A stretch of 64,000 bases of DNA from assembly GCA_047285535.1 (NCBI GenBank), contig JBJBDC010000001.1:2304136-2368135 (forward strand), read 5' to 3'. The position numbers and the translations under genes are program-made. This stretch comes from Synechococcus sp. (lineage in GTDB: Bacteria > Cyanobacteriota > Cyanobacteriia > PCC-6307 > Cyanobiaceae). Of this stretch, positions 11,498-63,898 are shown in pieces (positions within the stretch are counted from its first letter, which is position 1; the number at the start of each line of letters is the position of its first letter). The notes beneath the pieces are model-generated. The model worked only from the letters and a program-made list of their open reading frames with translations. It ran no database searches and was not told the DNA's origin.

Positions 11498-11569
11498 GCG
11501 GATGTAGCTCAGTGGTAGAGCATCTCCTTGCCAAGGAGAGGGTCGAGAGTTCGAATCTCTTCATCCGCT
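11498..11569 (+). tRNA. tRNA-Gly (GCC)
   Basis: GCGGATG/CATCCGC acceptor stem, D-arm TAGCTCAGTGGTAGAGC, anticodon arm TCTCC-TTGCCAA-GGAGA, T-loop GTTCGAATC; CCA not encoded. Confidence 0.97.
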
Positions 11570-27641: not shown

Positions 27642-30600
27642 TCAAACCATTGTGGACTTCTCAGTGCTGCTGTTGCTTGGCGAGAAAAGCTTGCTCTCTA
27701 GGTTCTTGATCAGCACATAAAACGGGGGAACAACAACAAGAGAGAGCGCGGTGGCCACGATCAATCCTCCAAAGATGACGGTGCCAAGCGCCTGTTGCGC
27801 AGAAGCTCCGGCACCGTTGGCGACCACCAGCGGGAGAAAGCCGGCTAACGCTGCAACTGCAGTCATCAGGATTGGGCGAAGTCGCGATTCGGCTGATTCC
27901 ATCACAGCGTCAACGGTACTTTTTCCTTGCTTGAGCTTTTGTTCTGCGACCTCCACGATCAAGATTCCGTTCTTGGCGGCCAGACCAATCAGGGTGACCA
28001 AGCCAATTTGTGCATAGATGTTCAGATCGATGGAGCGGAACGCTAGAAACGCGAGAGCACCAAGCATGGCGAGGGGCACGGTTGCCAGAATGATGATTGG
28101 AGTGATGTAACTCTCGTACTGTGCTGAGAGAACGAGATACACAAAGAGAATCCCAAGTCCAAACACCAAGATGCTTGCGCTTCCAGCGGACAGTTGCAGC
28201 GCTGCGAGACCGGTGAAGGCTGAACCGATATTGGTGTAGTTCTGTGCAGTGAACAGTTGCTGGATTGTGGCCAAGGCCTGACCACTACTCTTCCCAATCG
28301 CTTGAGCGCCTTGGATCAGCACGGTGCGGCTCAAGTTGTAGTGGGCGATCACCGGTGGCGCGCTGCTGAGTTCGGCTTCGGCGAATTGCGAAACCTGGAC
28401 TAGGTCGCCATCTCTCGATGGAACATAGAAGCTAAGAATGTCGTCGATGTTCTCTCTCTCTTCAGGTGTGCCCTGAACATAGATGTTGCGCACCTGACCA
28501 CTTTCGTAGGTCAGCCCTGAGAAATTGCTACCCGCCAGAGCGGCAATGCTGTCCATCGCTGCCTTGTATTCGACGTTCAGGGCACCCATCACCTCTCGAT
28601 TCACTTTGAGGCCGATCGCTGGAGAGCTGGGGTTGAATTGGGTGTAAATGTTGGAAAAGTCACCACTTGCATTGGCCTTCTTGATCAGTTGGCCAGCCAA
28701 ATCAGAGAGTTCGTTGAAGGTGTAGGCCCCGTTGCTGAGATCGTTGAACTGGAAGTAGAAACCTCCTTGGGGGGAGAATCCAGGGACCGCTGGTGGGCCT
28801 GAAGCTCTAGCCAGGCCGTCGCTTAATTGGATTAACTTTGCATTGAGTCGATTCACAATGGCTTCTGAACTATGTTCAGCGCCTTTTCGTTCTTCCAAAG
28901 GCAGGAGGCCGAAGAAAAAGATGCCCTGATCAGGGCTGGAGCCGTTGAAGCCGGCTCCGGCGACAATTGACGCGTTGGCTACATCTTCTTCTTCACTCAG
29001 AACTTTGGCAATTTGAGCCCCGAGTTTTTTGGTCTCGACCAGTGAAGCCCCGTTTTGCAGTTGGAAGACTCCCATGCCATAGCCTTGATCCTGATCCGGG
29101 ATGAAGGCTGTAGGAAGGGTGGTAAATGCAAAGCCAGTCATCACGATGCCGATGACTAATCCAGTGAGTACCAAAGTGCGTGCTCGGATCACCCGTTTGA
29201 GGATGTTGGCGTAGGTGTTTTCGAGACGCTCGAAGTTGCGGTTAAAAACCCTGAAGACCAGGGGCAGGTTCGCTCCAACGAGGGCGCCGATCACAATGCC
29301 GGCGATATAAGTCCAGTTGCCGAAGGAAGCAGAACTGAAGCGTCCAAAGGCCAAGCCGACGATCACTCCTACAACAATCCAACTGCGTCCCTTTGGTTCC
29401 GGTGGTTTTGTCTTCGGAAGGATCAAACCGGAGAGCATTGGAGAAAACGTCAGCGCATTAAAGGCAGAAATGGCAACAGAAAAGGCGATCGTGAGTGCGA
29501 ACTGCTTGTAGATAATTCCGGTTCCACCGGGATAAAACGCAACGGGTACAAACACCGCCATTAAAACCAGGGCTGTGGCCAGCAGTGCACCGAAGAGCTC
29601 GCCCATACAAGCCAGGGCGGCCTCACGGGGTTTCATGCCGTTTTCGATATTGGTAGAGACGGCTTCGATCACCACGATGGCGTCATCGACAACGAGTCCT
29701 GTTGCTAGAACGAGACCCAGCAAGGTGAGTTGATTGATCGAAAAGCCGAAGATATTGAGGAATGCGAATGTTCCCACCAGAGAAATGGGAATGGCCAGGC
29801 TGGGTACAACGGTGGCTCGCCAGTTCTGGAGGAAAAGAAACAGGATGATCAGGACCAGCACGATGGCAAGACCAAGCGCATCAATGACGCCATCAACGGA
29901 TGATTTGATGAACTGGCCGATGTCATAAATTTGATTAACAGTGACCCCAGGAGGCACGGTTGTCTTGAATTGGTTGATTGTTTCCACGACCGCTTGAGAG
30001 ACGTCAAGGGCATTACTTGAGGGCGTCTGATAGACAGCTACGGTGAGTGCTTCTTGCCCCTTTTTGTTCATCGCTTGTACAGAGAAAGTGTTAGTGCCAT
30101 AGCGGACTTCTCCTACATCTTTCAGTTTGAGCAAATTACCCAAAGGCGAGCGATTTATGATCAGATTGTTGAAATCATCGATGGAAATAAGGTTGCCATT
30201 GTTCTCCACTACAATTGGATATGTGTAAGCCTGATCACCAGAGGCAGGAGGCCCTCCTACCAGGCCGCCAACAGCAATACTGTTTTGGGCCTTCACTGCA
30301 TTGATAACTTTTTCGGAGGTGAGTTTGTTGGCGGCGAGTTTGTTGGGATCGATAAAGAGCCAGAAGGCTGGATTGGCTCCTCCATAGACATTGACCGTGG
30401 CGACCCCTTCTACCCGTGACAGTGGGTAATACAGTTGTTCATAGATAAGTCCATTTAAGTAAGCAGCATCAAATTGCCCTTTGGTGGAACTGACCTCGTA
30501 GGCGAGAAGGATCGAGGGGTTGCTTTGCTTGACGGATACGCCTGTTTCAGTCACCTTTTGCGGCAGCTGGGGGTTGGCCAGACTCACCCGGTTTTGAACA

Positions 30601-30923
30601 TTGACCTGATCAATATCGATATCGGTTGTTTGGTCGAAATAGACATTGATTGTGCTGTTGCCCGTCATGTCTGTGTTGGAGGAGATGTAGCTGACCCCAG
30701 GGACTCCGTTGATCTGTTGTTCCAAGGGATTGGTGACCGCTTGTTCGGTTACTTCAGCGTTCGCACCTCCATAGTTCGCGACAACCTGGATTTCAGGATT
30801 AGCGATGTTTGGCAGATAGGCAATTGGCAGGATCGGGATTGAGATCACTCCGACCAGCACAATCAAAATGCTGCAGACAGTGGTTAGAACTGGCCGCTTG
30901 ATGAAATTGTCAGAGAAGGACAT
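27642..30923 (-). CDS. RND efflux permease (HAE1/AcrB family)
   Basis: FIKRPV start, GLVVDDAIVV, AKNGIL and RLRPILMT proton-relay motifs. Confidence 0.96.
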   Translation of the reverse strand: MSFSDNFIKRPVLTTVCSILIVLVGVISIPILPIAYLPNIANPEIQVVANYGGANAEVTEQAVTNPLEQQINGVPGVSYISSNTDMTGNSTINVYFDQTTDIDIDQVNVQNRVSLANPQLPQKVTETGVSVKQSNPSILLAYEVSSTKGQFDAAYLNGLIYEQLYYPLSRVEGVATVNVYGGANPAFWLFIDPNKLAANKLTSEKVINAVKAQNSIAVGGLVGGPPASGDQAYTYPIVVENNGNLISIDDFNNLIINRSPLGNLLKLKDVGEVRYGTNTFSVQAMNKKGQEALTVAVYQTPSSNALDVSQAVVETINQFKTTVPPGVTVNQIYDIGQFIKSSVDGVIDALGLAIVLVLIILFLFLQNWRATVVPSLAIPISLVGTFAFLNIFGFSINQLTLLGLVLATGLVVDDAIVVIEAVSTNIENGMKPREAALACMGELFGALLATALVLMAVFVPVAFYPGGTGIIYKQFALTIAFSVAISAFNALTFSPMLSGLILPKTKPPEPKGRSWIVVGVIVGLAFGRFSSASFGNWTYIAGIVIGALVGANLPLVFRVFNRNFERLENTYANILKRVIRARTLVLTGLVIGIVMTGFAFTTLPTAFIPDQDQGYGMGVFQLQNGASLVETKKLGAQIAKVLSEEEDVANASIVAGAGFNGSSPDQGIFFFGLLPLEERKGAEHSSEAIVNRLNAKLIQLSDGLARASGPPAVPGFSPQGGFYFQFNDLSNGAYTFNELSDLAGQLIKKANASGDFSNIYTQFNPSSPAIGLKVNREVMGALNVEYKAAMDSIAALAGSNFSGLTYESGQVRNIYVQGTPEERENIDDILSFYVPSRDGDLVQVSQFAEAELSSAPPVIAHYNLSRTVLIQGAQAIGKSSGQALATIQQLFTAQNYTNIGSAFTGLAALQLSAGSASILVFGLGILFVYLVLSAQYESYITPIIILATVPLAMLGALAFLAFRSIDLNIYAQIGLVTLIGLAAKNGILIVEVAEQKLKQGKSTVDAVMESAESRLRPILMTAVAALAGFLPLVVANGAGASAQQALGTVIFGGLIVATALSLVVVPPFYVLIKNLESKLFSPSNSSTEKSTMV

Positions 30924-30927
30924 TGGC

Positions 30928-32070
30928 TCAGTTGGCTCCCGTTGCGACCTTGACCGGCATGCCACTGCGCAGGCGACTTGTATTGCTCACTGCCACCTTG
31001 TCCCCAGTCTTGAGTCCCGAAATCACGGGATAGAGGTTGTTCTGTAATGGTCCAAGCTTGACTGGGGTTTGAAACACCATCGGAGTGTTCCCAGGAAGCT
31101 TTTCCAGTTTTTTCAACTCTTGATCCGTCGTATTGGGTGAGCTTTTGATCTTCGGCAGTGCCTTGCTGATGGGCACAACCCTGTAAACGAAAGGTTGTTG
31201 AGCTTGCATCATCACGGCCTGCACTGGTACAGCCAGACTTTGACTCGTTCCCGTGATGATCGTGGAGGCCACGTACTGGCCAGTTTTTAATTGTCCGGTG
31301 AGATTGGGGAATTCCGCCTTCACCGTCATTGTGTTGGGTGGGTTGCCGTTTTGGCTGAATGCGAAGTAAGGAGATATAAAGGTGATTTTCCCTTCACCTG
31401 TGATCTGGGGGGTGGATTGGGATGCAACTTTCACAGTTTGCCCCACTTTGACTTGGGAGGCTTGGGATGACGGAATGTCCATCAATGTCCAGAGCGTGGA
31501 GTTGTCCACGATCCCTGTGATGGCTTGTCCAGTTGTGACGTAGTCCCCGAGCTTTACGGTATCGAGATCCCCGACCACACCATCAATTGGAGAGCGTACA
31601 AATTTATAGTTAAGAGTGGCTTTGTCAGCAATGGCCTGATCCCGTGCTTTGATCGCCTTTGTGGCATAGAAATCACGATCCATGGCCGAGGCGGCGCCTT
31701 GTTCGTAAAGGTATTGAAAACGCTCCGCATTCACAAAGCTGTTTCGAGCTGCTGATTGTGAAGTATTGAGCTGAGCGCTATCTTGCGTGTTATCGAGAAC
31801 AAGAATCACTTGCCCTGCTTGTACTCGATCTCCCTCCCTAACAAGCTTTTTGATTACTCGTCCATCGGTCTCAGGGCTTAACACCACATTGGTGGTGGAC
31901 TCGAGCGGGCTAATGGCTCTGATGCTTGGCGCGAAGGTGCTTTCGGAGATTGTCGCGGTCTTGATGGATAAAAAGGTATGACCGGCCTTTTTGCTTTGAC
32001 CGCATGCTGCAAGCGCAGTCGAGACAATCAGCACGACCGCAAGGGAACCTCGCACAATCCAACCTTTCAC
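30928..32070 (-). CDS. RND periplasmic adaptor (MFP), lipoprotein
   Basis: Lipobox LAAC, V.EGDRVQAGQ and RSPIDGVVG lipoyl-like halves, GLKTGDKV. Confidence 0.92.
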   Translation of the reverse strand: MKGWIVRGSLAVVLIVSTALAACGQSKKAGHTFLSIKTATISESTFAPSIRAISPLESTTNVVLSPETDGRVIKKLVREGDRVQAGQVILVLDNTQDSAQLNTSQSAARNSFVNAERFQYLYEQGAASAMDRDFYATKAIKARDQAIADKATLNYKFVRSPIDGVVGDLDTVKLGDYVTTGQAITGIVDNSTLWTLMDIPSSQASQVKVGQTVKVASQSTPQITGEGKITFISPYFAFSQNGNPPNTMTVKAEFPNLTGQLKTGQYVASTIITGTSQSLAVPVQAVMMQAQQPFVYRVVPISKALPKIKSSPNTTDQELKKLEKLPGNTPMVFQTPVKLGPLQNNLYPVISGLKTGDKVAVSNTSRLRSGMPVKVATGAN

Positions 32071-32519
32071 TGGGCGGAGGTTACCTGCAATTCACGTTTG
32101 TTGGCGGCATGGATTGTGATTCAGTCATCAGGACGAGTGTTGATGATTTGCTGACCACAGTGTTCTGTCTGGACCGTGGGCCTCAAGCGCTGCCGTTAAG
32201 TCCTGAGATGCCGTTGCGTCGACACAAGCTGCCTGCAGTTATTCATGAGAGACAAAAGCTGTTCATTCAGGCCATTTTGTTTGTTTTTAGGGTAGAGAAC
32301 AGCGGCGAGTGAGATGAAACGTGGTGTCATCGGCAGGATGTCTTGGCGTTGTTGTGAATCCGAAAAGATGACAGCCAGCCAAAGTTCAGCTCAGTACAAG
32401 GCAAATGTCCAGGAGGTCGGCCAAAGATGGAAGGAGCCGATCATGTGCTGCGTGCATGGTTATGGCTAGTGTCTAAGGAAGGAAGGCCAACCGCAACGGC
32501 TCCTGGGCCAAGGGATTGT

Positions 32520-32572
32520 CTCCCCCCCCCCGCTCATCACGCTGAGGATGAAAATTGACGAGGGCGGGGAGG
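32520..32572. repeat. C10 homopolymer inside an imperfect GC-rich inverted repeat
   Basis: CTCCCCCCCCCCGCTCATCA ... TGACGAGGGCGGGGAG. Confidence 0.5.
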
Positions 32573-32660
32573 ATGGATGGCACGTCGCTACAAATCGGGA
32601 ATGGCTTCTATCCCATGAAAGAAGTTTGATCTCTGGGGCTCAAGTCTTCAGGGAAATCTG

Positions 32661-32801
32661 ATGCTCATGTCGCGTTTCACGTATGAGAGTTTTCAAATGT
32701 TGTTTGAAATCTGGATGCTGCTCGCATTGGCCTTTGGATTGAAAGCTTGCAGTAGCGTTCTTGTGCGGTTGGATGAATACTTGCCTGCGTGGATCTTTTG
32801 A
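32661..32801 (+). CDS. Possible 46-aa single-TM small protein
   Basis: MLMSRFTYESFQMLFEIWMLLALAFGLKACSSVLVRLDEYLPAWIF*; below the ORF-track length cutoff. Confidence 0.4.
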   Translation: MLMSRFTYESFQMLFEIWMLLALAFGLKACSSVLVRLDEYLPAWIF

Positions 32802-33009
32802 GCGTGAATTCATTGATTTGATGGTTGTGATGAGCCGATCCTCTCTGGTTGTTGCTAAAGCATGACTAATTGTGGATTCAGCGTTTGTGAATTTGTGCCT
32901 GTCTTTGTCTTTGTCTTTGGATGATTGATGTTAGTGGCTCTTGGGATTCGATCTCTTTGCGTGGGTATGCGGTGATTGAGCGGAAGTGGCTTTTGATTTC
33001 GGTCGCATT

Positions 33010-33137
33010 GGATACCAAATTACTTGAAAAGATTTTGCTTAATAGATTAGTTCAAATGATTTTTACTTCTTATAAAGTTTAGTGTGACCTTTTAATTGAC
33101 GGCTTGTTTGGCCATCTCTCGGTGAAATTCAAAAACT
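33010..33137 (+). promoter_or_regulatory. AT-rich putative promoter region of the arginase-urea channel operon
   Basis: Markedly AT-rich stretch containing TTGAAA and TATAAA hexamers just upstream of the ATG at 33138; exact -35/-10 pairing not resolved. Confidence 0.4.
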
Positions 33138-34646
33138 ATGGCTTCGATCCGTTTTGGCGAAGAGCTATCCAATCTGTTTGCGCTGATTGATGCTGACGGA
33201 GATGGGGTGATTACCACAGCCGAGGTGGAGCAGTTGCTGACCTCCATGGATGTAATCGTTGACCCTTCTGAAGCCAGTGCCTTGCGTGAACTCATCGCCA
33301 CAAAGGGGTCTTTGAATCGCGCTGACTTTTTGTTTTGGGCTAATCAGCAACCAGAGTTGGGGACCCATCAACTGCTCAGGGATCTGTTTGCGTTGATTGA
33401 TACCGATAGGAATGGCTGGCTGAGTCAGGAAGAACTTTCTGTGCTGGTTGCGCTTTTGCTTACGCCTGAGGCGCATTTGACCCCCGAGTTTTTGCTGGAG
33501 CGGCTTGATCGTGATGGGAATGGGCAGATCACAACGGATGAATTTCTGGCTTTATTTGAGGAGGAGAGCCTGTTGTCGTTATCTCTGGCTGACCTCAAGC
33601 GCCTGAAGAAAAATTTGGTACAGATCACCAGCACGTCCCGTTTGGCTGGGGTGAGCCTGGTGGAGGTGGATTGTGATCTGGGAGCCGGGATCCCGGGAGC
33701 AGGGGCTGGGATCGAATTGCTGAAGACTGCCATGCAGCGCCAGAAAGATCTGCAGCGGATGAGTGAATCTCTGATTGCTGAGATTCATGCTCAGCAGAGT
33801 CCTATTGCTCGAGCGACCGCCGCTGGCAGTCACAGTCAGACCCCGCATGCTCGCCACATCGAAACCATTGCTGGAGTGATGCGCAAGGCTTCCCAACTTG
33901 TGGCCAGCACCCTCGAGCAGGGACGTTTCCCTCTAGTGCTGGCAGGTGACCACTCCACGGCTGCTTCCACGATCGCTGGCATCCGTCGTGCTTATCCGCA
34001 GCAGCGACTGGGGGTGGTTTGGATCGATGCCCATGCTGATCTCCATTCACCCTTCACGACACCGTCGGGCAACATGCACGGCATGCCTTTGGCAATAGCC
34101 ACTGGGCTCGACAACTTGCCCGAGTCGATCAATGTCCCCGACGCTCGCACCCAAGAGCTTTGGAGGGAATTAAAGCAGTTGCACGGATCAGAATCGGCCG
34201 CGATCGCATTGCGGGATTTGATTTATGTCGCTGTACGCGACACCGAGGCCGCTGAGGATGCAGCGATCATTGCGCATTCAATTCCTGTAATCAGCACCGA
34301 GCAGCTGCGACAAGAAGGGGCCTTGCAGGTTGCCAATCGCTGCCTAGCCCACCTTGCGGAGGTGGATCTTATTTATGTGAGCTTCGATGTGGATGCCCTT
34401 GATTCAACGATCTGTAAGGGAACAGGAACTCCGGTGCCTGGGGGGCTCTGGGCCCATGAAGCTGCTTCACTCTTGCGCACTCTGCTGTCCGACCCACGGA
34501 TTTGTTGTTGGGAAATCTGCGAAATTAATCCTCATCTTGATGAGCTGAACACCCTGGCGGAGGTTTCGCTGGGGATCTTCCGGGCCGGACTGGAGGTGCT
34601 CTCGGAGCGGTTCACTCCCATCACCGTTGCCTCCTATGCCGATTGA
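33138..34646 (+). CDS. Arginase fused to an N-terminal calmodulin-like EF-hand domain
   Basis: EF loops DADGDGVITTAE, DTDRNGWLSQEE, DRDGNGQITTDE; ureohydrolase Mn ligands GDHS, DAHAD, SFDVD; arginase-type SGNMHG; TGTPVPGG; EINP. Confidence 0.92.
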   Translation: MASIRFGEELSNLFALIDADGDGVITTAEVEQLLTSMDVIVDPSEASALRELIATKGSLNRADFLFWANQQPELGTHQLLRDLFALIDTDRNGWLSQEELSVLVALLLTPEAHLTPEFLLERLDRDGNGQITTDEFLALFEEESLLSLSLADLKRLKKNLVQITSTSRLAGVSLVEVDCDLGAGIPGAGAGIELLKTAMQRQKDLQRMSESLIAEIHAQQSPIARATAAGSHSQTPHARHIETIAGVMRKASQLVASTLEQGRFPLVLAGDHSTAASTIAGIRRAYPQQRLGVVWIDAHADLHSPFTTPSGNMHGMPLAIATGLDNLPESINVPDARTQELWRELKQLHGSESAAIALRDLIYVAVRDTEAAEDAAIIAHSIPVISTEQLRQEGALQVANRCLAHLAEVDLIYVSFDVDALDSTICKGTGTPVPGGLWAHEAASLLRTLLSDPRICCWEICEINPHLDELNTLAEVSLGIFRAGLEVLSERFTPITVASYAD

Positions 34647-36240
34647 TGACCATTCCCTGTTTGAGCTTTTACAGGTCTTGTTGCCGCCACCTCCCCCGGT
34701 TCGCAGAGCTGTAAGGGGTGGGGTTTTTAGCAACCGCTTTTCGTTGAGCCCTTGGCTCAGCTGGTTGCGTAGCTTTTCGCAGGTGATCTTCATCAACAAT
34801 CCGCTGAGTGGAGCCCTGCTGCTACTGGCTTTTCTGCTGGGTTCCCCCTGGATGGCTCTTTTGGCTGTGGTTGGCATGGCTGCGGCCAATCTCACCTCAA
34901 GCCTGCTTGGTTTAGCAAGGAATCTGCGTGACCAGGGCATTCATGGTTTCAACGGTGTTCTGGTGGGTTGTGCTGGGGCATCTCTCGTGAATCTCGGAGC
35001 CGTTCAAAGTGTTGGTCTTTTGGTGATCTTGGTGGGAGTCGGGGGCGGTTTCACCACGGTGCTTGTCGAAGTCTGGAGCCGCTTCTTTCATCGCCGCGGA
35101 GATCCACCGGTGCTCACGTTGCCGTTCTGTTTGGTCACCTGGTGCCTTTTGATTCTTGTCCTTCCTTCATCTTCAGATCCGATTGAGTCCCTGCAGTTCT
35201 CTGCAGCAGGAGGTTTGCTGCAGGCGTTGCTGCTCGGCCTGCCTCAAAGCTTTGGTCAAGTGTTTCTCTGCTCAGGCTTGGCGAGCGGATTCCTGGTGCT
35301 CCTGGCTGTCGCCTTGGCCAGTCCTATGGCTGCGGCTCTCGGCGCGGCTGGGGCGATGGTGGGGATGATGACCGCTCTGATTCTTTCCCAAGGCGCTGAT
35401 CATGCGGCCGTGGCTCAGGGGCTCTGGGGCTACAACGGTCTTCTGGTGGCGATCGCTCTTGGCGGGATCTTCCATGCTCCCGGAGTGAAAAGCCTGCTGA
35501 TGGGTCTGGCTGGGGCATGTCTTGCCACTCTGCTTCAATCCCTTCAGGTCTCGCTGATGAGCAGCCTGCCTCCTTTGACCTTCAGCTTCGTGCTGACGAC
35601 CTGGCTGCTGCAGCGCTTTGCCAGCCAGACGTTGCCGGCTCTGATTCCGGTCTCCTTGCATGCGGTGGTTACGCCTGAGGAACATCGCAAGCGGTTTGTT
35701 GTCGCCAGGGAGCTGCTTGGCAGTTTCCGTCGCAACCTGCGGCAGCGGATTAATGGAACAGTGCAAACCCCTGGCCTGGCTCCGTTGGCGCCGGCGCTGC
35801 AGACTCAGGCGCAACGTTTGTTCCAGTTGATCGACCGCGATTGCGATGGCAGCCTCAGCTTGGACGAGTTGCGTGAGGCGTTGCTGCCGTCTCGATCCAG
35901 GGATGAGGCCTCAGAGCAAAGCCTGTCCTTTCTGGATTCTCAGCTGACAGCAACGATGGCTGCGATGGATCTCGATGGAGATGGACGGATCGACTTCGCT
36001 GAATTCAGCCAGCTGATCCAGCGATTGCAGCGGCTCCGTGAGGGGGAGGAACGGCTCCTTCTGTACCTCTTGCCCGTCGATGTCAATGGTGACGATCGCC
36101 TCGATCGGGATGAATTGGCCCGATTGCTGCAAAGCCTTGGTCAAACGCCGCTCACGGCGACCGAACAGTCACTGGTTTTCGCTGATCAGGAGTTGGGTCT
36201 GCGCTGGCGCGATTTTGTGGATCGCCTGCTGTTGATTTGA
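34636..36240 (+). CDS. UT-family urea transporter fused to a C-terminal EF-hand domain
   Basis: UT repeat motifs SFSQVIFINNPLSG / GIHGFNG / LTLPF and SFGQVFL / GLWGYNG / LTFSF, then TPEEH; EF loops DRDCDGSLSLDE, DLDGDGRIDFAE, DVNGDDRLDRDE; overlaps the arginase stop. Confidence 0.9.
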   Translation: MPIDDHSLFELLQVLLPPPPPVRRAVRGGVFSNRFSLSPWLSWLRSFSQVIFINNPLSGALLLLAFLLGSPWMALLAVVGMAAANLTSSLLGLARNLRDQGIHGFNGVLVGCAGASLVNLGAVQSVGLLVILVGVGGGFTTVLVEVWSRFFHRRGDPPVLTLPFCLVTWCLLILVLPSSSDPIESLQFSAAGGLLQALLLGLPQSFGQVFLCSGLASGFLVLLAVALASPMAAALGAAGAMVGMMTALILSQGADHAAVAQGLWGYNGLLVAIALGGIFHAPGVKSLLMGLAGACLATLLQSLQVSLMSSLPPLTFSFVLTTWLLQRFASQTLPALIPVSLHAVVTPEEHRKRFVVARELLGSFRRNLRQRINGTVQTPGLAPLAPALQTQAQRLFQLIDRDCDGSLSLDELREALLPSRSRDEASEQSLSFLDSQLTATMAAMDLDGDGRIDFAEFSQLIQRLQRLREGEERLLLYLLPVDVNGDDRLDRDELARLLQSLGQTPLTATEQSLVFADQELGLRWRDFVDRLLLI

Positions 36241-37577
36241 GCTTGCAAAGCACGATCGCTCTCCGCCTTAGAGAGTTCAAGGTCACAGCCAACCGGTTGG
36301 ATCAAGTGCTCGAGTGCGTCGGCGGTTTGAGACAGGCCCTTCTCTTCTTGGATGAGTTTCTGCAACTGGAGAGCACGCTGTTTGAAGCTTGGGGTAACGG
36401 CGAGGCTCTGCAAGCTTTTTCTGAGCCCATCGGTGGTCACTGTTTTTGCTGTGTAAGTGGCTGGACTGACTCCCAAGCGCTCAAGGGTGCGTCCCCAGGC
36501 CGGCTGATCAGCGAAGAAGGCCACCACGATGCTGGGAATGCCACTGATCAGTGTGCTGGCTGTTGTGCCTGCACCGCCGTGGTGGATGGCACCTTGCAGT
36601 TGAGGGAAGAGCCACTGATGGGGACAGTGTTCGAGTACGAACACTGACTCAGGCAATCGACCTTTTGGCAGCAGATGCCCCCATCCCGGCGAGAGGATCA
36701 GTCGTTGATTGGCTTGGCATGCCGCGGTGACGATGATCTCGGCAAGCTGTTCTGGATCTCTGGGGATCATGCTTCCAAAGCCGGCATAAAACGGGGCTGG
36801 CCCTTCCTGCAGAAAATGCTTGAGGTCCTCAGGGGGCTCGTAAGGGTGATCGGCCTCCTTTGTGGAAAGGCAGAACCCTGTCACTTTTGCTTGAGAAGGC
36901 CAGTCCGCCGGCTTTGGGATTAAGTGTTTGCTGAAGAGATGCAGCACCGTTGGGGATTGCAGAAACGGAGGGGTGTCTTGTCTGGCTGATGCTCCGTTCC
37001 AGGGCAGTTGGGGTAGTCCTTGCTGACGTCGAAACGCTTGAATCACGTTGCTTTCTTGTCGCCATTTGAGAAGGCGAATCGCTTCATAACTGAGTTGGTT
37101 GAGTTTTCCTCGGATGCGGTTGCGAGGTCCGCTCCCATTGGAAGACCCATCTCCTGGCCAGCTCAGGAAGGAGAAGTTTGTTGTGCTGAGCAACGGAATC
37201 GGGCTGACCACCGCGAACCTGCAGCCCTCAGCTTCAGCAAGGTGATATCCCCATAGAGCCAACGGCGGAGTGAGTAGCAGGTCGCAGCCATCGATTGCTT
37301 TGCGGGCAGTTTCGATCCATTCATGAAGCAAGTTGTTATTGATTAAACGAATGGCTTTGCCCTCCATTAACTGGACGCCGTCTTCTGAAGCCATGAGCTC
37401 TCTGAAGTCTCCCGCAAGAGAGGTGAAACGCACCCCCTCGTCTTGCACAGCCTCTTGAAAATTGGCGCTGCCAATGAGATGCACATCATGACCGCGCTTC
37501 TTGAGTTCCTTAAGAAGAACCAAATAGGGCTCGAGATCACCGCGTGAGCCGACGCTGATTAGATGGATGGATGCCAT
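36186..37577 (-). CDS. GT1/GT28-type glycosyltransferase (sterol/glycolipid glucosyltransferase-like)
   Basis: GSRGDLEPY, GFGSM, HHGGAGTT, FFADQPAWG. Confidence 0.9.
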   Translation of the reverse strand: MASIHLISVGSRGDLEPYLVLLKELKKRGHDVHLIGSANFQEAVQDEGVRFTSLAGDFRELMASEDGVQLMEGKAIRLINNNLLHEWIETARKAIDGCDLLLTPPLALWGYHLAEAEGCRFAVVSPIPLLSTTNFSFLSWPGDGSSNGSGPRNRIRGKLNQLSYEAIRLLKWRQESNVIQAFRRQQGLPQLPWNGASARQDTPPFLQSPTVLHLFSKHLIPKPADWPSQAKVTGFCLSTKEADHPYEPPEDLKHFLQEGPAPFYAGFGSMIPRDPEQLAEIIVTAACQANQRLILSPGWGHLLPKGRLPESVFVLEHCPHQWLFPQLQGAIHHGGAGTTASTLISGIPSIVVAFFADQPAWGRTLERLGVSPATYTAKTVTTDGLRKSLQSLAVTPSFKQRALQLQKLIQEEKGLSQTADALEHLIQPVGCDLELSKAESDRALQAQINSRRSTKSRQRRPNS

Positions 37578-37662
37578 AGACGGCGGCTTTTTAATAACAA
37601 CTATTTTCTGCAGATCGCTTGCAGCGCGTGCGCTCTCTCGCTTAGAAATCGATGAGAAAGCA

Positions 37663-38868
37663 ATGTGTTGGTTCCTGCCCCCTCCGATCCGATTTGTGGC
37701 CTGCAATCTGGTTAAGGATCTTCTCGATTGGTGGGAGATTCATGGTCGTAGGGATCCAGCGCAAAAGCCTTGGATGTTTACTCCTGAAGGGAAATGGCCT
37801 CAGCGCTGCGAGCACTTGAATCCCTATCCGATTCACGTGGCCGAGGTGATGCTGCAGCAAACACAGCTGCAGGTGGTGCTGCCGTATTGGCAGCGCTGGA
37901 TGGAGTTCTTCCCAGCTCTTGAGGCGTTAGCTGAGGCGGAGGCGCAGACAGTGTTGCTGTGTTGGCAGGGTCTCGGCTACTACTCCCGGGCTCGCCGTTT
38001 GCATGACTCGGCCCGGCAGCTGCTGAAGCGAATAGGCTCCAATGCCTCTCATGATCCACAGTGTTGGTCAAGGGATCTGGAGGCGTGGCTGGAATTGCCG
38101 GGGATCGGCCGCAGTACGGCTGGCGGCATTCTTTCCTCTTCTTTTAATAGCCCAGTGGCGATCCTGGATGGCAACGTGCGCCGGGTGTTGGCGCGGTTGC
38201 AGGCTCATTCGCTTCCGCCGATGCGGGCGCAATCTCTGTTCTGGAGATGGAGCCAAGCTTTAATCGATGCTGCTCCATCGCGGGCCAGAGATCTCAATCA
38301 GGCTCTGATGGATCTTGGTGCCACGGTTTGTACCCCCCGTTCACCACAATGCTGCTCCTGTCCCTGGCAGGATCATTGCGCTGCGTACGCTGCTGGCGAT
38401 GTGGAGCGCTTCCCCGTGAAAGAGACCCCGAAAGCTGTGCCCTTTCAGGTGATAGGTGTGGGTGTGGTGCTGAATGATGCCGGTGAGGTGTTGATTGATC
38501 AACGCCTGAATGAGGGGCTGCTTGGTGGATTGTGGGAGTTCCCCGGCGGTAAGCAGGAGCCTGGCGAGGCCATCGTTGCCACGATCTCGCGCGAATTGCA
38601 GGAAGAGTTGGGCATTGAGGTGGCTGTGGGAGAGGAGTTGATCAGCCTCGAGCACGCTTACAGCCATAAAAAGCTGCGATTTGTTGTGCATCTCTGCGAG
38701 TGGCGTTCTGGAAACCCACAGCCTCTGGCGAGCCAGCAGGTGCTCTGGGTAAGCCCGAATGAACTGCGGAATTACCCTTTTCCCGCAGCCAATGCACGGA
38801 TCATCGAGGCCTTGGTTGGCAGGTTGGATCCTTCTGGTCAGCCTGAAGCAAGTTGCAATGAGGACTGA
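37663..38868 (+). CDS. mutY: A/G-specific adenine glycosylase MutY with C-terminal Nudix (MutT) domain; start uncertain
   Basis: EVMLQQT, GLGYYSRAR, LPGIG HhH, DGNVRRV, 4Fe-4S C-x6-C-x2-C-x5-C, Nudix box GKQEPGEAIVATISRELQEELGI. Confidence 0.93.
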   Translation: MCWFLPPPIRFVACNLVKDLLDWWEIHGRRDPAQKPWMFTPEGKWPQRCEHLNPYPIHVAEVMLQQTQLQVVLPYWQRWMEFFPALEALAEAEAQTVLLCWQGLGYYSRARRLHDSARQLLKRIGSNASHDPQCWSRDLEAWLELPGIGRSTAGGILSSSFNSPVAILDGNVRRVLARLQAHSLPPMRAQSLFWRWSQALIDAAPSRARDLNQALMDLGATVCTPRSPQCCSCPWQDHCAAYAAGDVERFPVKETPKAVPFQVIGVGVVLNDAGEVLIDQRLNEGLLGGLWEFPGGKQEPGEAIVATISRELQEELGIEVAVGEELISLEHAYSHKKLRFVVHLCEWRSGNPQPLASQQVLWVSPNELRNYPFPAANARIIEALVGRLDPSGQPEASCNED

Positions 38869-41376: not shown

Positions 41377-42729
41377 CTACACAAGTCCCCCCACGATCGG
41401 CCACCAGCAACTATCAATCACTTGCTGCTCTGCTGACTTGGTCTCCGCGTTGCGGATTTCAGCAGCAAGACTATCCAGAAGAGATCCATGCAACAGCGGG
41501 CCCATGGCCTCATGCAGTACAGAATCGCGCTCGAACGCCATCCGGGCTTCAACAAGGCTGGCCGGAAGCTTGGGGATGTTGTGATCGCTCAGCAGAGCGG
41601 GATCACCCGTTTGCTCCGGTGGAAGTGTGCGTTGATCACGCAGGGCGTCAAGCACCTGAGCTTGAAGTGCACCCAACAGCAAGTAGGGATTTGCAGTGGG
41701 ATCGACTGCTTTGATTTCCAGGTGAGCGGCACTCTGATCGATTGCGGTGGGAATTAAGCGAACGGCTGCCTCACGGTTCTCCATGCCCCAGACCTGGAAA
41801 GGGGCGGACCAGCTGCTGGGCACCAGCCGTAGGTAAGACACAGGAGAAGGGCTGGCCAGCGCCACCAGAGCAGGGAGTTGCTCAAGCATCCCGGCAATCA
41901 GGGCTTCTCCTTCAGGACGCAGCCCATAGGGACCTGGCCCGTCTTGGAGCAGGGGGCCTTGAGCATCCCGAAGGCTGAAGTGCAGGTGGCCGCCATTCCC
42001 GATCCAGTCCAGTCGGGGTTTGGCACTAAAGCTGCTGTACCAGCCAAAGCGGCGCGTCACGCGTTGGATCACCAGACGGGCTCGTATCAGCTGATCCGCC
42101 ACCTGGAGTGGGGCTTCGGCTGCGAAGGACAGTTCGAACTGCGAGGGGCCATATTCGGGATGAAACTGGATCCAGTCCACCTCTGCGGTATCGAGTGCCT
42201 CGAGAAGTGCCGAGGCGTAATCGAGGCCCTCGATCAAACGGTCGGCTCCGTAAGGTCCCCCAGAGATCATCGCCTTTGGGGAGCCGTTTCTGTCAGGGCT
42301 TACGACAACCCATTCCAGTTCAAATCCGGCGGTAAGGGACAGTCCAGCTGCATCGAGTTTCTCCTCCATGCGGCGGCAGAAGTGGCGTTGATCTGCGCCG
42401 TAGGGTCCGCTCGTACGAGTCCAGCGTTCGCCCGCGGCCCAGGCCCAGCCCTGATTGGGCTCCAGCATTGCCAGCGATTTAGGGTCTGCCTTGAGGCGCA
42501 GATCGCCATCCGGTCGTGTGAGGCGATGCGTTGGTTCGATGATCCCGTCCGAACGGAAGGCATCGGATATGGGCGAGAAGCCGACTCCGATGTCGACGGC
42601 GAGTTGCCAACGACGCAAAGGCACAACCTTGACGAGCGACTCGCCCGCGTGGTTGTCCCAGGTGATGGCGATCTGACGCACACCTTTGGCGGTCAACGCT
42701 TCGAGGGACTGGTCATACTCCGTGGTCAT
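41377..42729 (-). CDS. Glutamine synthetase-like protein (GlnA3/FluG-type gamma-glutamyl-amine ligase candidate)
   Basis: GFELEW, HPEYGPSQFE, GNGGHLHFSL, SYLRL, NREAAVR, LEIKAVDPTANPYL. Confidence 0.88.
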   Translation of the reverse strand: MTTEYDQSLEALTAKGVRQIAITWDNHAGESLVKVVPLRRWQLAVDIGVGFSPISDAFRSDGIIEPTHRLTRPDGDLRLKADPKSLAMLEPNQGWAWAAGERWTRTSGPYGADQRHFCRRMEEKLDAAGLSLTAGFELEWVVVSPDRNGSPKAMISGGPYGADRLIEGLDYASALLEALDTAEVDWIQFHPEYGPSQFELSFAAEAPLQVADQLIRARLVIQRVTRRFGWYSSFSAKPRLDWIGNGGHLHFSLRDAQGPLLQDGPGPYGLRPEGEALIAGMLEQLPALVALASPSPVSYLRLVPSSWSAPFQVWGMENREAAVRLIPTAIDQSAAHLEIKAVDPTANPYLLLGALQAQVLDALRDQRTLPPEQTGDPALLSDHNIPKLPASLVEARMAFERDSVLHEAMGPLLHGSLLDSLAAEIRNAETKSAEQQVIDSCWWPIVGGLV

Positions 42730-42905: not shown

Positions 42906-43091
42906 ATGTCTGAAGTTCCAAGAGGTCTGCTATGGCTGGCCGTGCCCGCTGCGGTTGTTTTGGCCTTAGTGGTGCATGGTCAGGCTGAATCGGCCCTGCC
43001 TTTTTGGGCTGGCATGCCTGTTTGGGTGTTGATGTTCATCGCCCTGCAGGCGGCACTCACCCTTGTTGCTGCTTGGATCGCCCGCCCATGA
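42906..43091 (+). CDS. Small 2-TM symporter accessory protein (DUF3311/DUF997-like)
   Basis: 61 aa, two hydrophobic helices flanking AGMPVW; ATGA overlap with the SSS gene. Confidence 0.6.
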   Translation: MSEVPRGLLWLAVPAAVVLALVVHGQAESALPFWAGMPVWVLMFIALQAALTLVAAWIARP

Positions 43092-44545
43092 GCATCACCT
43101 TGATCTCCGCGCTCCTTGCGCTGGTGGCTTATCTCCTGGCGTTGCTCTGGCTTGGTGCTCAGAGTCTCGGGGGTCAAACCAACAGCGCCGACTCCTATTT
43201 TCTGGCCGATCGGCGACTGCGTGCCGGTGTGCTGTTTTTCACGCTGATCGCCACTAATTTCAGCGCTTTCTTTTTTCTTGGCTTTGCCGGCGCGGGATAT
43301 CGAATCGGGATTGCGTACTACCCAATGATGGCGTTCGGAACAGGATTAGCAGCCTTCAGCTTCGGCAGCCTCGGCTGCCGGGTGCGCAAACTCAGCGCTC
43401 AACATGGCCTGATCACCCCGTCCGAATTGATCGGTCATTTCTTGCCTGGGGAAGGCCTGCGCCTCTTGGTGCTTGCGGTGATGGTGCTGTTCACCCTTCC
43501 CTATTTAGCTCTGCAACCTTTGGGTGCCGGTTACTTGTTGGAGAGCCTTACGGGAGGTGCGGTTCCTTTTGGCGTTGGAGCAACCCTGCTCACGGTCGTG
43601 ATTGTGCTCTATGTCGTAGGCGGCGGCATGCGAGCTGTGGCACGGACCGACGTGCTTCAGGGGGTCTTGATGTTCCTGCTGATGCTGATGGCCTTTGGGG
43701 CTGTAGCCAAAGGTGTCGGTGGCGTCGAGATGGCGAATCGTACGCTGTTCCAACAACGTCCAGACCTCTTCAGTACGGCTGGTCTTGGCGGGTTCTTTAC
43801 GCCGCGAATGATGGCGAGCTATTTGCTGCTCTGGCCTTTGTGTCTGCCGATGTTTCCGCAGATGCTGATGCGTTTCTTTGCCGCCGGGGATGACCGTTCG
43901 CTGAAGCAATCCATGGTGCTGTACCCAGTGGTGGCGGGGGTGTTGTTTATCTGCCCGGTCATGATCGGGATGTGGGGGCATCTGGCCTTCCCCGATCTGG
44001 TGGGTCGCGCCTCAGATCAGATCCTGCCGTTGATGCTTGGACGCTACAGCCCTGAGTGGTTAACGGGAATCGTGATGGTGGGGGCCTTGGCTGCGTTTAT
44101 GTCAACCCTGGACTCGCAGTTGTTGGCGCTGTCTTCGATGCTGACTCGCGACCTCTACACAAGATATTGGCGCCCGCAAGCTTCCTTGCCAGAGCAAGTG
44201 CGTGTCGGGCAGTTCGTGGTGATCGCCCTTGCGGTTGCTGGGCTGGTCATCGCCCTTCGGCCTCCGGATGCGATTCTTTCGCTTGCAACCCATGCGTTCT
44301 CCGGTTTGGCCTTGCTGTTCCCGATGCTGGTGGGGGCGGTCTATGGCCTGCGTTGGTCTGTCCTTGGGGCGATGTTGTCGGTGATCGGCGGCGAAGCCGT
44401 CCTGCTGGGTTTTGCAACGGGTGTGATTCCAGAGGGGTTCCAGGTTGGCTGTCTACCTTTGATTCCGGCACTGGTGGTGGCCTGCTCGATTTTGGTTGTG
44501 GATCAGCTCATTGATCGCTGGTCTTCGTCTTGCTTGCAGGCCTGA
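43088..44545 (+). CDS. Sodium:solute symporter (SSS) family permease
   Basis: YFLADR, ATNFSAFFFLG, GGMRAVARTDVLQG, AAFMSTLDSQLL; many hydrophobic segments. Confidence 0.93.
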   Translation: MSITLISALLALVAYLLALLWLGAQSLGGQTNSADSYFLADRRLRAGVLFFTLIATNFSAFFFLGFAGAGYRIGIAYYPMMAFGTGLAAFSFGSLGCRVRKLSAQHGLITPSELIGHFLPGEGLRLLVLAVMVLFTLPYLALQPLGAGYLLESLTGGAVPFGVGATLLTVVIVLYVVGGGMRAVARTDVLQGVLMFLLMLMAFGAVAKGVGGVEMANRTLFQQRPDLFSTAGLGGFFTPRMMASYLLLWPLCLPMFPQMLMRFFAAGDDRSLKQSMVLYPVVAGVLFICPVMIGMWGHLAFPDLVGRASDQILPLMLGRYSPEWLTGIVMVGALAAFMSTLDSQLLALSSMLTRDLYTRYWRPQASLPEQVRVGQFVVIALAVAGLVIALRPPDAILSLATHAFSGLALLFPMLVGAVYGLRWSVLGAMLSVIGGEAVLLGFATGVIPEGFQVGCLPLIPALVVACSILVVDQLIDRWSSSCLQA

Positions 44546-54898: not shown

Positions 54899-55867
54899 TC
54901 AGTCTGGCGTTTCTAGAAGATGCAGAGAGAGATCATCCTCTGGATCATGCCAGCGGCGCACCCAACGCCATCCCGCCTGTTGCGCTAGCGCAAGAGCACG
55001 TTCAGGGCTGTATTTGAGGCTGCACTCGGTGATCAGTGGTTCATTGCGTTTGAAAGTCCAGCTCTCACCTGCGATCGTGATGGTCTGTTCGCAGCTGCTG
55101 ATCAACGCCATCTGCACGCGCTGTTGCTCAGCTTGCCAGCGTGCTTGGTATTGAAAGCATGCGGGATCAAAATTGGCTCCTAGATCGGTATTCAGGCGAC
55201 ACAGCAAGTTGCGTGCGAAGGCTGCTGAAATTCCAGCAGCATCGTTATAGGCGGCTTCGAGTCGGACCTGGCTTTTGGGTTGGTCGAGGCCAAGAAGGAG
55301 AGGTCCTCCGTTCAGTAATTGTCTGAAATGGCGTAGCACTCTGACGGCATCATGCTCTTCAAAATTGCCGAGTGAGCTGCCTGGAAAGAAACCGATGAGT
55401 CTCTTGTTGGAGAGGAATCGGTGTGCTGGTAATGCAGCAAGTGTGCTGTGATCACAACAGATTCCCAGCATCGAGACCTCAGGGTGGCGTTGCTGCAGGG
55501 CCGAAGTGGCCTGGCGTAGATGGTCAGCACTGATGTCGAGGGCCACATAGGCCGAAGGGTGAGCGGCTTCGAGAAGAGGTCCCACCTTTTGGGCGCTACC
55601 AGCGCCGAATTCAACGATCACACCTTCACCGATGGCCGTCGCGATGTCATGGGCACAAGACTTGAGCAGAGCGATTTCAATGCGTGTGAGGCTGTATTCG
55701 GGTTGCTCACAAATGCGATCGAAGAGGCGGGAGCCTTCCGCGTCGTAAAGAAACCAGGCCGGGAGTTGGCGCGGGTGACGGTTGAGCCCGATCCGGACGA
55801 GATGTTCCATATCCGCCGCTTGCGGATGGAGGTCAATGAGTTCGATCTGTTGAGAGGTGGTGGTCAT
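54899..55867 (-). CDS. egtD: L-histidine N-alpha-trimethyltransferase
   Basis: YDAEGSRLFDRIC..PEY, EFGAGS, FPGSSLGN, AAYND. Confidence 0.95.
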   Translation of the reverse strand: MTTTSQQIELIDLHPQAADMEHLVRIGLNRHPRQLPAWFLYDAEGSRLFDRICEQPEYSLTRIEIALLKSCAHDIATAIGEGVIVEFGAGSAQKVGPLLEAAHPSAYVALDISADHLRQATSALQQRHPEVSMLGICCDHSTLAALPAHRFLSNKRLIGFFPGSSLGNFEEHDAVRVLRHFRQLLNGGPLLLGLDQPKSQVRLEAAYNDAAGISAAFARNLLCRLNTDLGANFDPACFQYQARWQAEQQRVQMALISSCEQTITIAGESWTFKRNEPLITECSLKYSPERALALAQQAGWRWVRRWHDPEDDLSLHLLETPD

Positions 55868-57072: not shown

Positions 57073-57168
57073 GGGAGGTTGGTGCACTCAAAATGACCTT
57101 AATGAGATCAAGCTGCGAGTGCTTTCGTACAAGTCCCCCTACCATCAGCCCATCTAGGCCATGTCGTT

Positions 57169-63703: not shown

Positions 63704-63750
63704 AAGCAGAAGTGCACCAGACCCGGAAACTGTGGCTAGCTTGTCAATAC

Positions 63751-63840
63751 CACTAGGGGTGCCTCGGCTGTCCTTGCGATAGACGGGGCTGAGATCACAC
63801 CCTCTGAACCTGATCCGGGTCATGCCGGCGCAGGGAAGTG
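63751..63840 (+). ncRNA. TPP riboswitch
   Basis: CACTAGGGGTGC..GCTGAGA..ACCC..GAACCTGATC..ATGCCGGCGCAGGGAAGTG upstream of thiC. Confidence 0.95.
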
Positions 63841-63898
63841 AATAGCGTGATCCACGGTTTTCAAGCCGGCTCCTGGCAATTCCGCTGCTGCCAAGGAC

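Follow-up and report, generated by a model that had tools for sequence, protein, structure and literature searches.

Calmodulin-like EF-hand lobes on both an arginase-family enzyme and a UT-type urea channel encoded by overlapping genes in Synechococcus: a possible Ca2+-controlled pair

Two overlapping genes of Synechococcus sp. encode an arginase-family ureohydrolase and a UT-family urea channel, each of which carries a lobe of EF-hands connected to its working domain through a conserved basic helix. The genes lie in a 64,000-nucleotide (nt) stretch (GenBank assembly GCA_047285535.1, contig JBJBDC010000001.1, positions 2,304,136 to 2,368,135 of the forward strand), and this whole stretch is called the window below; the genes are called gene 1 and gene 2 and together the cassette. 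The reading put forward here is that a urea producer and a urea channel would be switched together by Ca2+. Taken as a whole, this model is held tentatively, at slightly less than an even chance, and the narrower claim that both proteins would bind Ca2+ is held with more confidence. The elements of the cassette are listed below, with their lengths in amino acids (aa) and with the evidence for each in brackets, namely the list of open reading frames (ORFs), Pfam, homologues, alignments or AlphaFold2 (AF2) models. The alignments A1 and A2 hold 61 homologues of gene 1 and 63 homologues of gene 2, respectively.

33138..34646, forward strand: gene 1, EF-hand lobe, basic helix and arginase-family ureohydrolase, 502 aa, ATG start (ORF list, Pfam, homologues)
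33153..33560, forward strand: calmodulin-like lobe of gene 1, residues 6-141, four helix-loop-helix units (Pfam, loop pattern, AF2)
33573..33641, forward strand: conserved basic amphipathic linker helix of gene 1, residues 146-168 (conservation in A1, AF2 helix 150-167)
33651..34580, forward strand: arginase-fold catalytic domain of gene 1, residues 172-481 (PF00491, solved relatives, Foldseek)
34636..34646, forward strand: 11-nt overlap of the gene 2 start codon and the gene 1 stop codon (read from the sequence)
34636..36240, forward strand: gene 2, UT urea channel, basic helix and EF-hand lobe, 534 aa (ORF list, Pfam, homologues)
34753..35703, forward strand: UT channel domain of gene 2, residues 40-356 (PF03253, alignment to solved UTs, Foldseek)
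35674..35754, forward strand: conserved basic juxtamembrane helix of gene 2, residues 347-373 (conservation in A2, AF2 helix 347-373)
35791..36234, forward strand: calmodulin-like lobe of gene 2, residues 386-533 (Pfam, loop pattern, AF2)

Both lobes are recognized by several criteria. Five EF-hand Pfam families score above cut-off in gene 1 (residues 9-140) and five in gene 2 (about residues 393-510 in the numbering of a 537-aa form), and both proteins match calmodulin chains in the sequence search of solved structures. Searching for the loop pattern located canonical 12-residue EF loops at residues 18-29, 88-99 and 124-135 of gene 1 and at residues 400-411, 445-456 and 482-493 of gene 2, all six with Glu at position 12. 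Four helix-loop-helix units are folded in each lobe of the AF2 models, and each lobe is called calmodulin-like for this reason; one unit per lobe is degenerate, which in gene 2 is the fourth. In A1 and A2, loop positions 1, 3, 5 or 6, and 12 either never vary or are conserved in at least 90% of the rows. Among gene 1 homologues with a length of 480 aa or more, 93 of 109 have exactly three canonical loops, as do 93 of 111 gene 2 homologues with a length of 500 aa or more. Foldseek matched the gene 2 lobe to calmodulin, to the calmodulin-like domains of calcium-dependent protein kinases (CDPKs) and to the Ca-regulatory domain of the ATP-Mg/Pi carrier.

The linker helices between lobe and working domain are among the best-conserved parts of each protein. 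In gene 1, basic residues occupy positions 157 and 158 and hydrophobic residues positions 146, 150, 153, 156 and 160 in all 61 sequences, and the helix is regarded as a putative calmodulin-target-like element. In gene 2, P347, H350, R353 and R365 are present in 63/63 sequences and F364 and L368 in 61/63, and the segment is regarded as a putative junction helix. A cytoplasmic position of the gene 2 lobe fits these features, and the tail is tentatively placed there because the juxtamembrane helix is strongly basic (positive-inside rule) and because of the presumed topology of UT proteins.

A common origin of the two lobes was considered and set aside, the similarity between them being weak and confined to the level of loops (best E 3e-4). 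No sign of the gene 1 lobe as a portable module was found: of 30 matches to the lobe alone, 28 are arginase fusions and the other two are weak, and a kinase with EF-hands (P0390) is the only match from a non-arginase family. Complex prediction for gene 1 with residues 345-534 of gene 2 scored 0.00 in two runs that had no controls, and the result is counted neither for nor against binding.

The catalytic domain of gene 1 matches the arginase family PF00491 (E 2.2e-49, 168.9 bits against a cut-off of 22, residues 172-471). Its closest solved relatives are the arginases of Thermus and Bacillus (caldovelox), which align over the whole length of the domain at E 1e-39 to 1e-36, while agmatinase-type chains match at 7e-19 or weaker in the sequence search of solved structures. 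The AF2 model of gene 1, built on A1, has a mean predicted local distance difference test score (pLDDT) of 79.5 and a predicted template-modelling score (pTM) of 0.78, with pLDDT of about 90 over most of residues 240-470, and its top Foldseek matches are all arginases (target-normalised TM 0.67-0.80, E down to 3e-19). Residues H272, D297, H299, D301, H314, D417, D419 and E462 are invariant in A1, and the motifs that contain them line up with those of the Thermus and Bacillus arginases. On the roles assigned in the rat and human enzymes, H272, D297, H299, D301, D417 and D419 are taken to be the six binuclear-metal ligands and H314 and E462 to be catalytic. Gene 1 is thus like RocF of Bacillus and Thermus and like the animal arginases I and II in fold, binuclear-metal ligands and catalytic His and Glu; it differs from them in having an N-terminal calmodulin-like lobe, a linker helix and a His in place of an Asn, and in having a channel as partner rather than ornithine-catabolic genes. 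The enzyme is a member of the arginase fold family that stands closest to the true arginases, in a distinct subfamily. Arginase converts L-arginine into ornithine and urea, and the gene 1 product is most likely a cytoplasmic ureohydrolase of this type, predicted to release urea from L-arginine and to leave ornithine.

UT proteins are passive urea channels. In bacteria they are associated with urease-dependent use of urea and are not known to be associated with an arginase. Gene 2 matches the UT family PF03253 with E 1.9e-63 (214.8 bits against the Pfam cut-off of 25), and its UT domain aligns to human UT-A and UT-B and to the UT of Desulfovibrio (dvUT). The AF2 model, built on A2 (mean pLDDT 84.8, pTM 0.85), matches UT-B, UT-A and dvUT in Foldseek at target-normalised TM 0.72-0.84. 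T161 and T315 are invariant in A2 and line up with the Thr of the two UT-A pore motifs; we take them to be the central pore threonines, equivalent to T172 and T334 of UT-B, which are presumably essential there. In fold and signature residues gene 2 therefore resembles dvUT, Yersinia Yut and mammalian UT-A and UT-B, whereas the solved UTs have no EF-hand tail, the matched chains ending near residue 356-359 of gene 2. In the NCBIfam model for the Yut equivalog (TIGR03441), gene 2 remains below the cut-off, with 144.2 against 274.6 bits. The product is predicted to be a passive UT-type urea channel of the cell membrane, and the preliminary description of this DNA, which had named gene 2 as a UT channel with an EF-hand domain, is borne out by these matches.

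The gene 2 ORF as listed begins with TTG and spans 34627..36240, giving the 537-aa form; starting instead from the in-frame ATG at 34636 yields 534 aa. This is also the length of the database copy (P0121), which matches gene 2 with 100% identity and coverage, and the ATG at 34636 was used as the start. With the TGA stop of gene 1 at 34644-34646, the two genes overlap by 11 nt, as had been described before. No third gene was found conserved around the arginase-UT pair in the neighbourhoods of the window and of the related loci, and the pair is regarded as a two-gene unit for this reason; it is self-contained and probably co-transcribed and translationally coupled.

Concerning the mechanism, each lobe would bind Ca2+ and clamp its own neighbouring basic helix, and this would change the activity of the domain to which it is attached. 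Urea production and the urea permeability of the membrane would then be set together by a single cytoplasmic Ca2+ transient, and urea released when arginine is broken down in a burst could even out across the membrane rather than build up. The preliminary description had likewise proposed joint switching by cytoplasmic Ca2+, a reading that is plausible and has partial backing from conservation and linkage. The clamp is proposed because the layout of domain, helix and lobe matches that of CDPKs and of Ca-regulated mitochondrial carriers, and the pairing of these two proteins would be explained because urea is common to both. Activation by Ca2+ with efflux is favoured, since a channel placed right behind a urea-producing enzyme is simplest as a product outlet, and the data leave the direction of regulation and the direction of flow unconstrained. 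Within this model, we infer that the lobes bind Ca2+ and regulate, that they activate rather than inhibit, that L-arginine is the substrate and that urea flows outward. A more specific version, namely a bacterial Ca2+ sensor-responder pair in which a transient switches on arginine breakdown and opens a urea pore through CDPK-like modules, and in which the arginase might dock trimer-on-trimer onto the channel, is less likely than the general model.

The known systems on which the clamp is modelled differ from the cassette in several respects. In CDPKs of plants and apicomplexans, as in the cassette proteins, a single polypeptide combines the working domain with a junction helix and with a calmodulin-like domain of four EF-hands, and some of the best structural matches of the gene 2 lobe are CDPK calmodulin-like domains (3khe, 3l19, 4ysm and 3hx4). 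The working domains of the cassette are an arginase-fold hydrolase and a membrane channel, whereas that of a CDPK is a kinase, and the gene 1 lobe is N-terminal, so that the order is reversed. The CDPK-like layout of the cassette is seen in sequence and models, and autoinhibition by the helix is a CDPK feature that would be an additional step here. The Ca2+-regulated mitochondrial carriers (SCaMC/APC; aralar/citrin) share with gene 2 the fusion of a membrane transporter to a regulatory domain with four EF-hands, which engages an amphipathic helix; one of the structures matched by the gene 2 lobe is this domain of the human ATP-Mg/Pi carrier (4zcu). They differ in their SLC25 fold, in the position of the lobe, in residing in a eukaryotic organelle and in having no enzyme partner that carries the same module.

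The domain architecture of both proteins is conserved. EF-hand and arginase domains occur together in 113 of the 120 listed gene 1 homologues, the other seven being short (343-389 aa) with an arginase domain only, and UT and EF-hand domains occur together in 118 of the 120 listed gene 2 homologues. Where named, these homologues come from Synechococcus, Cyanobium, Vulcanococcus, 'Synechococcaceae' and one Prochlorococcus (MIT 1342). Both fusions occur widely among picocyanobacteria from the sea, the coast and fresh water, and they are also found in filamentous cyanobacteria, some Burkholderiales and Polyangiaceae. An exhaustive search with gene 2 at the level of 50% clusters returned only 35 clusters at E<=1e-30, of which about a dozen are full-length UT proteins with EF-hands. 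Among the divergent UT proteins (P0311, P0322, P0369 and P0321), some combine UT and EF-hand domains with long N-terminal extensions of unknown family (413 aa in P0311) and one UT carries C-terminal ankyrin repeats; these proteins may be eukaryotic. A Rosetta-stone fusion of arginase and UT was sought among 14 divergent or long UT proteins, and none of them has it.

Linkage of the two genes was assessed in a genome scan seeded with gene 1, which gave at least 80 loci; the best identity among the loci listed was 62%, and the closest marine relatives are not among them. The EF, arginase, UT and tail parts were located by tblastn in each of 80 loci. EF-hand arginases are present in 24 of the 80 listed loci (L001-L021, L023, L024 and L049), of which L020, L024 and L049 end too soon for linkage to be judged, leaving 21 assessable. 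Besides the window itself, 13 of these 21 have a UT gene as the immediate downstream neighbour on the same strand (L001-L006, L010-L014, L016, where it is cut by the contig end, and L019). The spacing between arginase and UT runs from overlap to 222 nt across the 12 loci with both ORFs complete and L022, and it is at most 4 nt or an overlap in 8 of these 13. By comparison, no UT gene was found near the unfused relatives, mostly from Bacteroidota (0/55 loci, some without full flanks), and Fisher's exact p for the UT linkage of EF-fused versus unfused loci is 1.3e-9, a value that is not corrected for shared ancestry. Indirect evidence of co-occurrence comes from twelve pairs of gene 1 and gene 2 homologues whose longest contigs, as judged by eye, have identical lengths. 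The search for these domain architectures and their linkage, which the preliminary description had proposed as a check, was thus positive for the fusions and largely positive for their co-occurrence as neighbours, with eight EF-arginase loci standing apart.

The arginase-domain tree comprises 79 rows, L024 and L049 having been left out on account of short matches, and is rooted by midpoint only. All EF-fused arginases, together with L022, form one clade with a Shimodaira-Hasegawa-like approximate likelihood ratio test (SH-aLRT) support of 100, to which the unfused Bacteroidota enzymes are sister. UT linkage is scattered inside the EF-arginase clade, and at least four changes are needed to account for it. 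A Burkholderiales group, with the EF-arginase and UT pair in the metagenome-assembled genomes (MAGs) of L014, L016 and L019, is nested among cyanobacteria, which suggests that the pair reached Burkholderiales via horizontal transfer. The arginases of this group have three canonical loops in L014 and L019 and two in L016. On the simplest reading of these sequences, a single event would have produced the EF-arginase fusion, UT would have been paired with it early in the history of cyanobacteria, and loss or relocation of the partner would have occurred several times, with one transfer to Burkholderiales. Some source labels clash with the place of the locus in the tree, namely those of L006 (Bifidobacterium breve) and of L021 and L077 (Bordetella parapertussis), and L022, from a MAG labelled Acidobacteriota, lies on a long branch inside the picocyanobacterial clade.

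Several observations weigh against a Ca2+-switched arginase-channel pair. Concerning the enzyme, gene 1 falls below the cut-off of the NCBIfam rocF equivalog TIGR01229 (191.9 against 227.6 bits), and residues 181-232 are disordered in its AF2 model. In addition, a His stands two residues after the DAHxD motif in 80/80 loci, a set that was gathered partly by a peptide pattern over the neighbouring motif and is not an unbiased sample, and the solved arginases have Asn there. Concerning the linkage, 8 of the 21 assessable EF-arginase loci have no UT gene in the available flank (Caldora, Symploca, Calothrix, a Coleofasciculaceae MAG, Moorena with a disrupted copy, two Polyangiaceae and a Burkholderiales-clade MAG labelled Bordetella parapertussis), from which it follows that the EF-arginase exists on its own and does not require the channel. 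At L022 (5722-8564), the gene that overlaps a UT-EF gene by 4 nt encodes an arginase of 406 aa that has no EF lobe. Concerning the channel tail, the Burkholderiales UTs of L014 and L019 carry a tail of about 200 aa with one canonical EF loop, that of L016 being cut by the contig end, and Pfam recognized no EF-hand in the L019 tail at 1e-5. Moreover, a passive channel that is open during arginine breakdown loses nitrogen, which is hard to fit to nitrogen-poor habitats unless it serves relief, exchange or uptake. The preliminary description had called gene 1 an EF-hand domain with an intact arginase; the domains and the motif residues that are invariant in A1 uphold that account, and the rocF score and the His in place of Asn qualify the word arginase.

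The same features of the enzyme bear on its substrate. If the substrate of the ureohydrolase were a different guanidino compound (for example a guanidino acid, agmatine or modified arginine), the channel would still dispose of urea and the lobes would still regulate. This alternative is unlikely, and it fares better than the others. The substrate specificity may differ from that of arginase because of the His in place of Asn, a position that we take to contact the substrate carboxylate, and both the score below the TIGR01229 cut-off and the separate clade formed by the subfamily, including its unfused Bacteroidota relatives, point the same way. We assume the contacts of the L-arginine alpha-carboxylate and alpha-amino groups to be N130, S137, N139, D181, D183 and E186 in rat numbering. 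Among their equivalents in gene 1, S310, N312, D368 and E373 are invariant, that of D183 is a Glu (E370) and that of N130 is the His (H303). Against another substrate, D368, E370 and E373, presumed equivalents of the alpha-amino binders, and the SGN-HG motif are invariant. Arginase is also by far the best NCBIfam model for gene 1 (76.8 bits for hutG and 64.5 for agmatinase, compared with 191.9 for TIGR01229), and its nearest solved relatives are all arginases by sequence and by fold, with agmatinases far weaker. For a different substrate it can be added that, in the accessible text of Schriek et al. (2007; PMC2242806), ureohydrolase substrates are stressed not to be callable from sequence. The literature searched yielded no measured substrate for this arginase subfamily. 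Release of urea from L-arginine by gene 1 is retained as the preferred assignment.

The flow of urea might also run inward. In that case a Ca2+ signal, for example at nitrogen step-down, would open the channel to external urea while the arginase mobilises internal arginine, and both would feed urease. UT channels are bidirectional and other bacterial urea channels serve a cytoplasmic urease. The preliminary description had contrasted gene 2 with the UrtABCDE ABC system, by which picocyanobacteria normally take up urea, a contrast that is one of general background. The family is common in freshwater and coastal lineages (Cyanobium, Vulcanococcus, lake MAGs), where urea can be more abundant, and a periplasmic binding protein of the Peripla_BP_5/6 type lies upstream in L003. 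Nevertheless, no urease or urt genes lie anywhere in the 64-kb window or are linked to the pair in the related loci examined, and the motif GTA-N8-TAC, assumed here to be the consensus of an NtcA-type site, is absent throughout the window. Tight pairing with a urea-producing enzyme is also simpler as product handling. Uptake is accordingly given a rather small chance, and efflux of urea made from arginine is kept as the favoured direction.

A scaffolding role, in which the lobe of one protein grips the helix of the other, holds the arginase oligomer against the cytoplasmic side of the channel trimer and lets urea pass directly from active site to pore, with or without dependence on Ca2+, appears improbable. 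The occurrence of the same module of lobe and basic helix in both partners, the gene overlap with its inferred coupling, the trimers on which arginases and UTs are both built, and the weak likeness of the two lobes, as expected of non-identical partners, are in keeping with such a complex; the lobes and helices are, nevertheless, equally conserved in the eight EF-arginase loci that have no nearby UT, and at L022 the UT-EF gene is paired with an arginase that has no lobe. Least probable of all is that the lobes are structural, Ca2+ buffers or binders of another metal that control neither activity: one EF unit per lobe is degenerate, the Burkholderiales UT tails are kept though most of their canonical loops are lost, and some bacterial EF-hand proteins such as EfhP are described as buffers in the accessible part of PMC13578307, but both proteins retain, across a wide phylogenetic range, three canonical loops that have Glu at position 12, and a conserved amphipathic basic helix, typical of sensor-responders and not of buffers, stands beside each lobe.

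Regulation of enzymes and transporters by Ca2+ through fused calmodulin-like domains is a kind of system already known. Recently, UT domains with EF-hand modules were recorded in 'protists and bacteria' and Ca2+ regulation was suggested (Biol Direct 2026, PMC12998343); the available part of its supplement gives 8-15 UT+EF proteins under 'Bacillati, Stramenopiles', with the same order as gene 2, UT and then EF-hands. In its main text, as far as accessible, the words arginase, cyanobacteri(a), Synechococcus and operon do not occur, and it contains no gene-neighbourhood analysis, conserved-helix analysis or experiments. The preliminary description had held that neither characterised arginases nor characterised UTs were described as EF-hand fusions. 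This catalogue, in the part available, makes the statement outdated for UTs as far as domain catalogues go; for arginases it stands, since a search of the open literature, with subscription-only papers outside its scope, returned no description of an EF-hand arginase or of an arginase-UT pair. Thus, the UT+EF architecture appears to be catalogued and unstudied, and the EF-arginase, the conserved helices and the operon appear to be undescribed. In the photosynthetic lineage, calredoxin of Chlamydomonas is a proposed Ca2+ sensor-responder that combines four EF-hands with a thioredoxin domain, and CSE of Anabaena is a small stand-alone EF-hand protein, proposed as a sensor and found mostly in filamentous cyanobacteria (PMC13578307). 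Both differ from the cassette, as far as their accessible descriptions go, in having other output domains or none and no tie to urea or arginine. The portions of the CSE literature consulted do not mention arginase, and urea occurs there only as a gel reagent. In the accessible text of the 2007 survey of cyanobacterial arginine catabolism (PMC2242806), the words EF-hand, calcium and urea transporter are absent.

Upstream of gene 1 lies one further element.

32071..33137, strand not assigned: long non-coding upstream region, presumed promoter and 5' leader (function judged from position only)

This region of about 1.07 kb is AT-rich in its 3' half, as the preliminary description had remarked, with a GC fraction of 0.43-0.48 over 32500-33250 against 0.55-0.61 within the genes. 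Only short ORFs occur in it and none is convincing; one of them, a 46-aa hydrophobic ORF at 32661-32801, shows no sign of being a gene. A riboswitch or leader upstream of gene 1 was rejected, because nothing in 32000-33200 matches Rfam at E<=1, and a scan of the region for the sigma-70 consensus gave no match. Terminator-like sites number 5 in 32000-36700, compared with 5.9 expected from shuffles; four of them are inside the two genes and none is convincing.

As for the surroundings, an RND efflux pump (AcrB-type, 1107 aa) and a HlyD-type membrane-fusion protein are encoded at 27642-32070 on the reverse strand, divergent from the cassette across the 1.07-kb gap. On the other side, the 3' ends of the UT-EF gene and of a convergent ORF for a GT1/EryCIII-like glycosyltransferase (36186-37706, reverse strand) overlap by 55 nt at 36186-36240. 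About 5 kb from the cassette, a glutamine-synthetase-like gene (41380-42729, reverse strand), whose best NCBIfam model is gamma-glutamylputrescine synthetase with 207 bits against a cut-off of 650, adjoins a sodium:solute symporter gene (43004-44542), and these two could provide a link to polyamine or ornithine-derived metabolism. Further away, two adjacent reverse-strand genes at 54902-57087 encode histidine-specific methyltransferase (PF10017) and FGE-sulfatase domains, which we take to be the EgtD/EgtB pattern of ergothioneine synthesis. The only Rfam matches in the window are a thiamine pyrophosphate (TPP) riboswitch at 63745-63853 (74.4 bits) and a tRNA at 11498-11569.

Individual features were also noted at the related loci. 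In the Moorena MAG (L023:6001-7988), the EF lobe contains an in-frame stop, and about 500 nt of unrelated AT-rich sequence separate the linker helix from the arginase domain. In the Calothrix MAG without UT (L009:7458-8879), a sodium:solute symporter gene is convergent to the EF-arginase gene and may represent an alternative transport partner. A non-ribosomal peptide synthetase (NRPS) gene of C-A-T-TE order ends 54 nt before the EF-arginase start in the Symploca MAG (L008:1502-7464), an adjacency that hints at a supply of ornithine to a peptide pathway in that lineage. In two filamentous cyanobacteria, the pair has transporter genes of the EamA (DMT) family beside it (L012:4244-5248 and 9290-10351; L013:5376-6464).

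Signalling by Ca2+ is documented in cyanobacteria, and its protein targets are largely unknown. For instance, in Nostoc only two Ca2+-binding proteins have been analysed, according to the accessible part of PMC13578307. In the cassette, the presumed sensor is covalently joined to two outputs that are simply assayed, the release of urea from arginine and the flux of urea. If the model is true, these would count among the first outputs, enzymatic and transport, to be identified as direct in cyanobacterial Ca2+ signalling, and an arginase route would be added to the arginine catabolism of picocyanobacteria. Picocyanobacteria, which are abundant, would then be able to let urea out, or in, by regulated pulses, and such regulated release or uptake would bear on nitrogen exchange in plankton.

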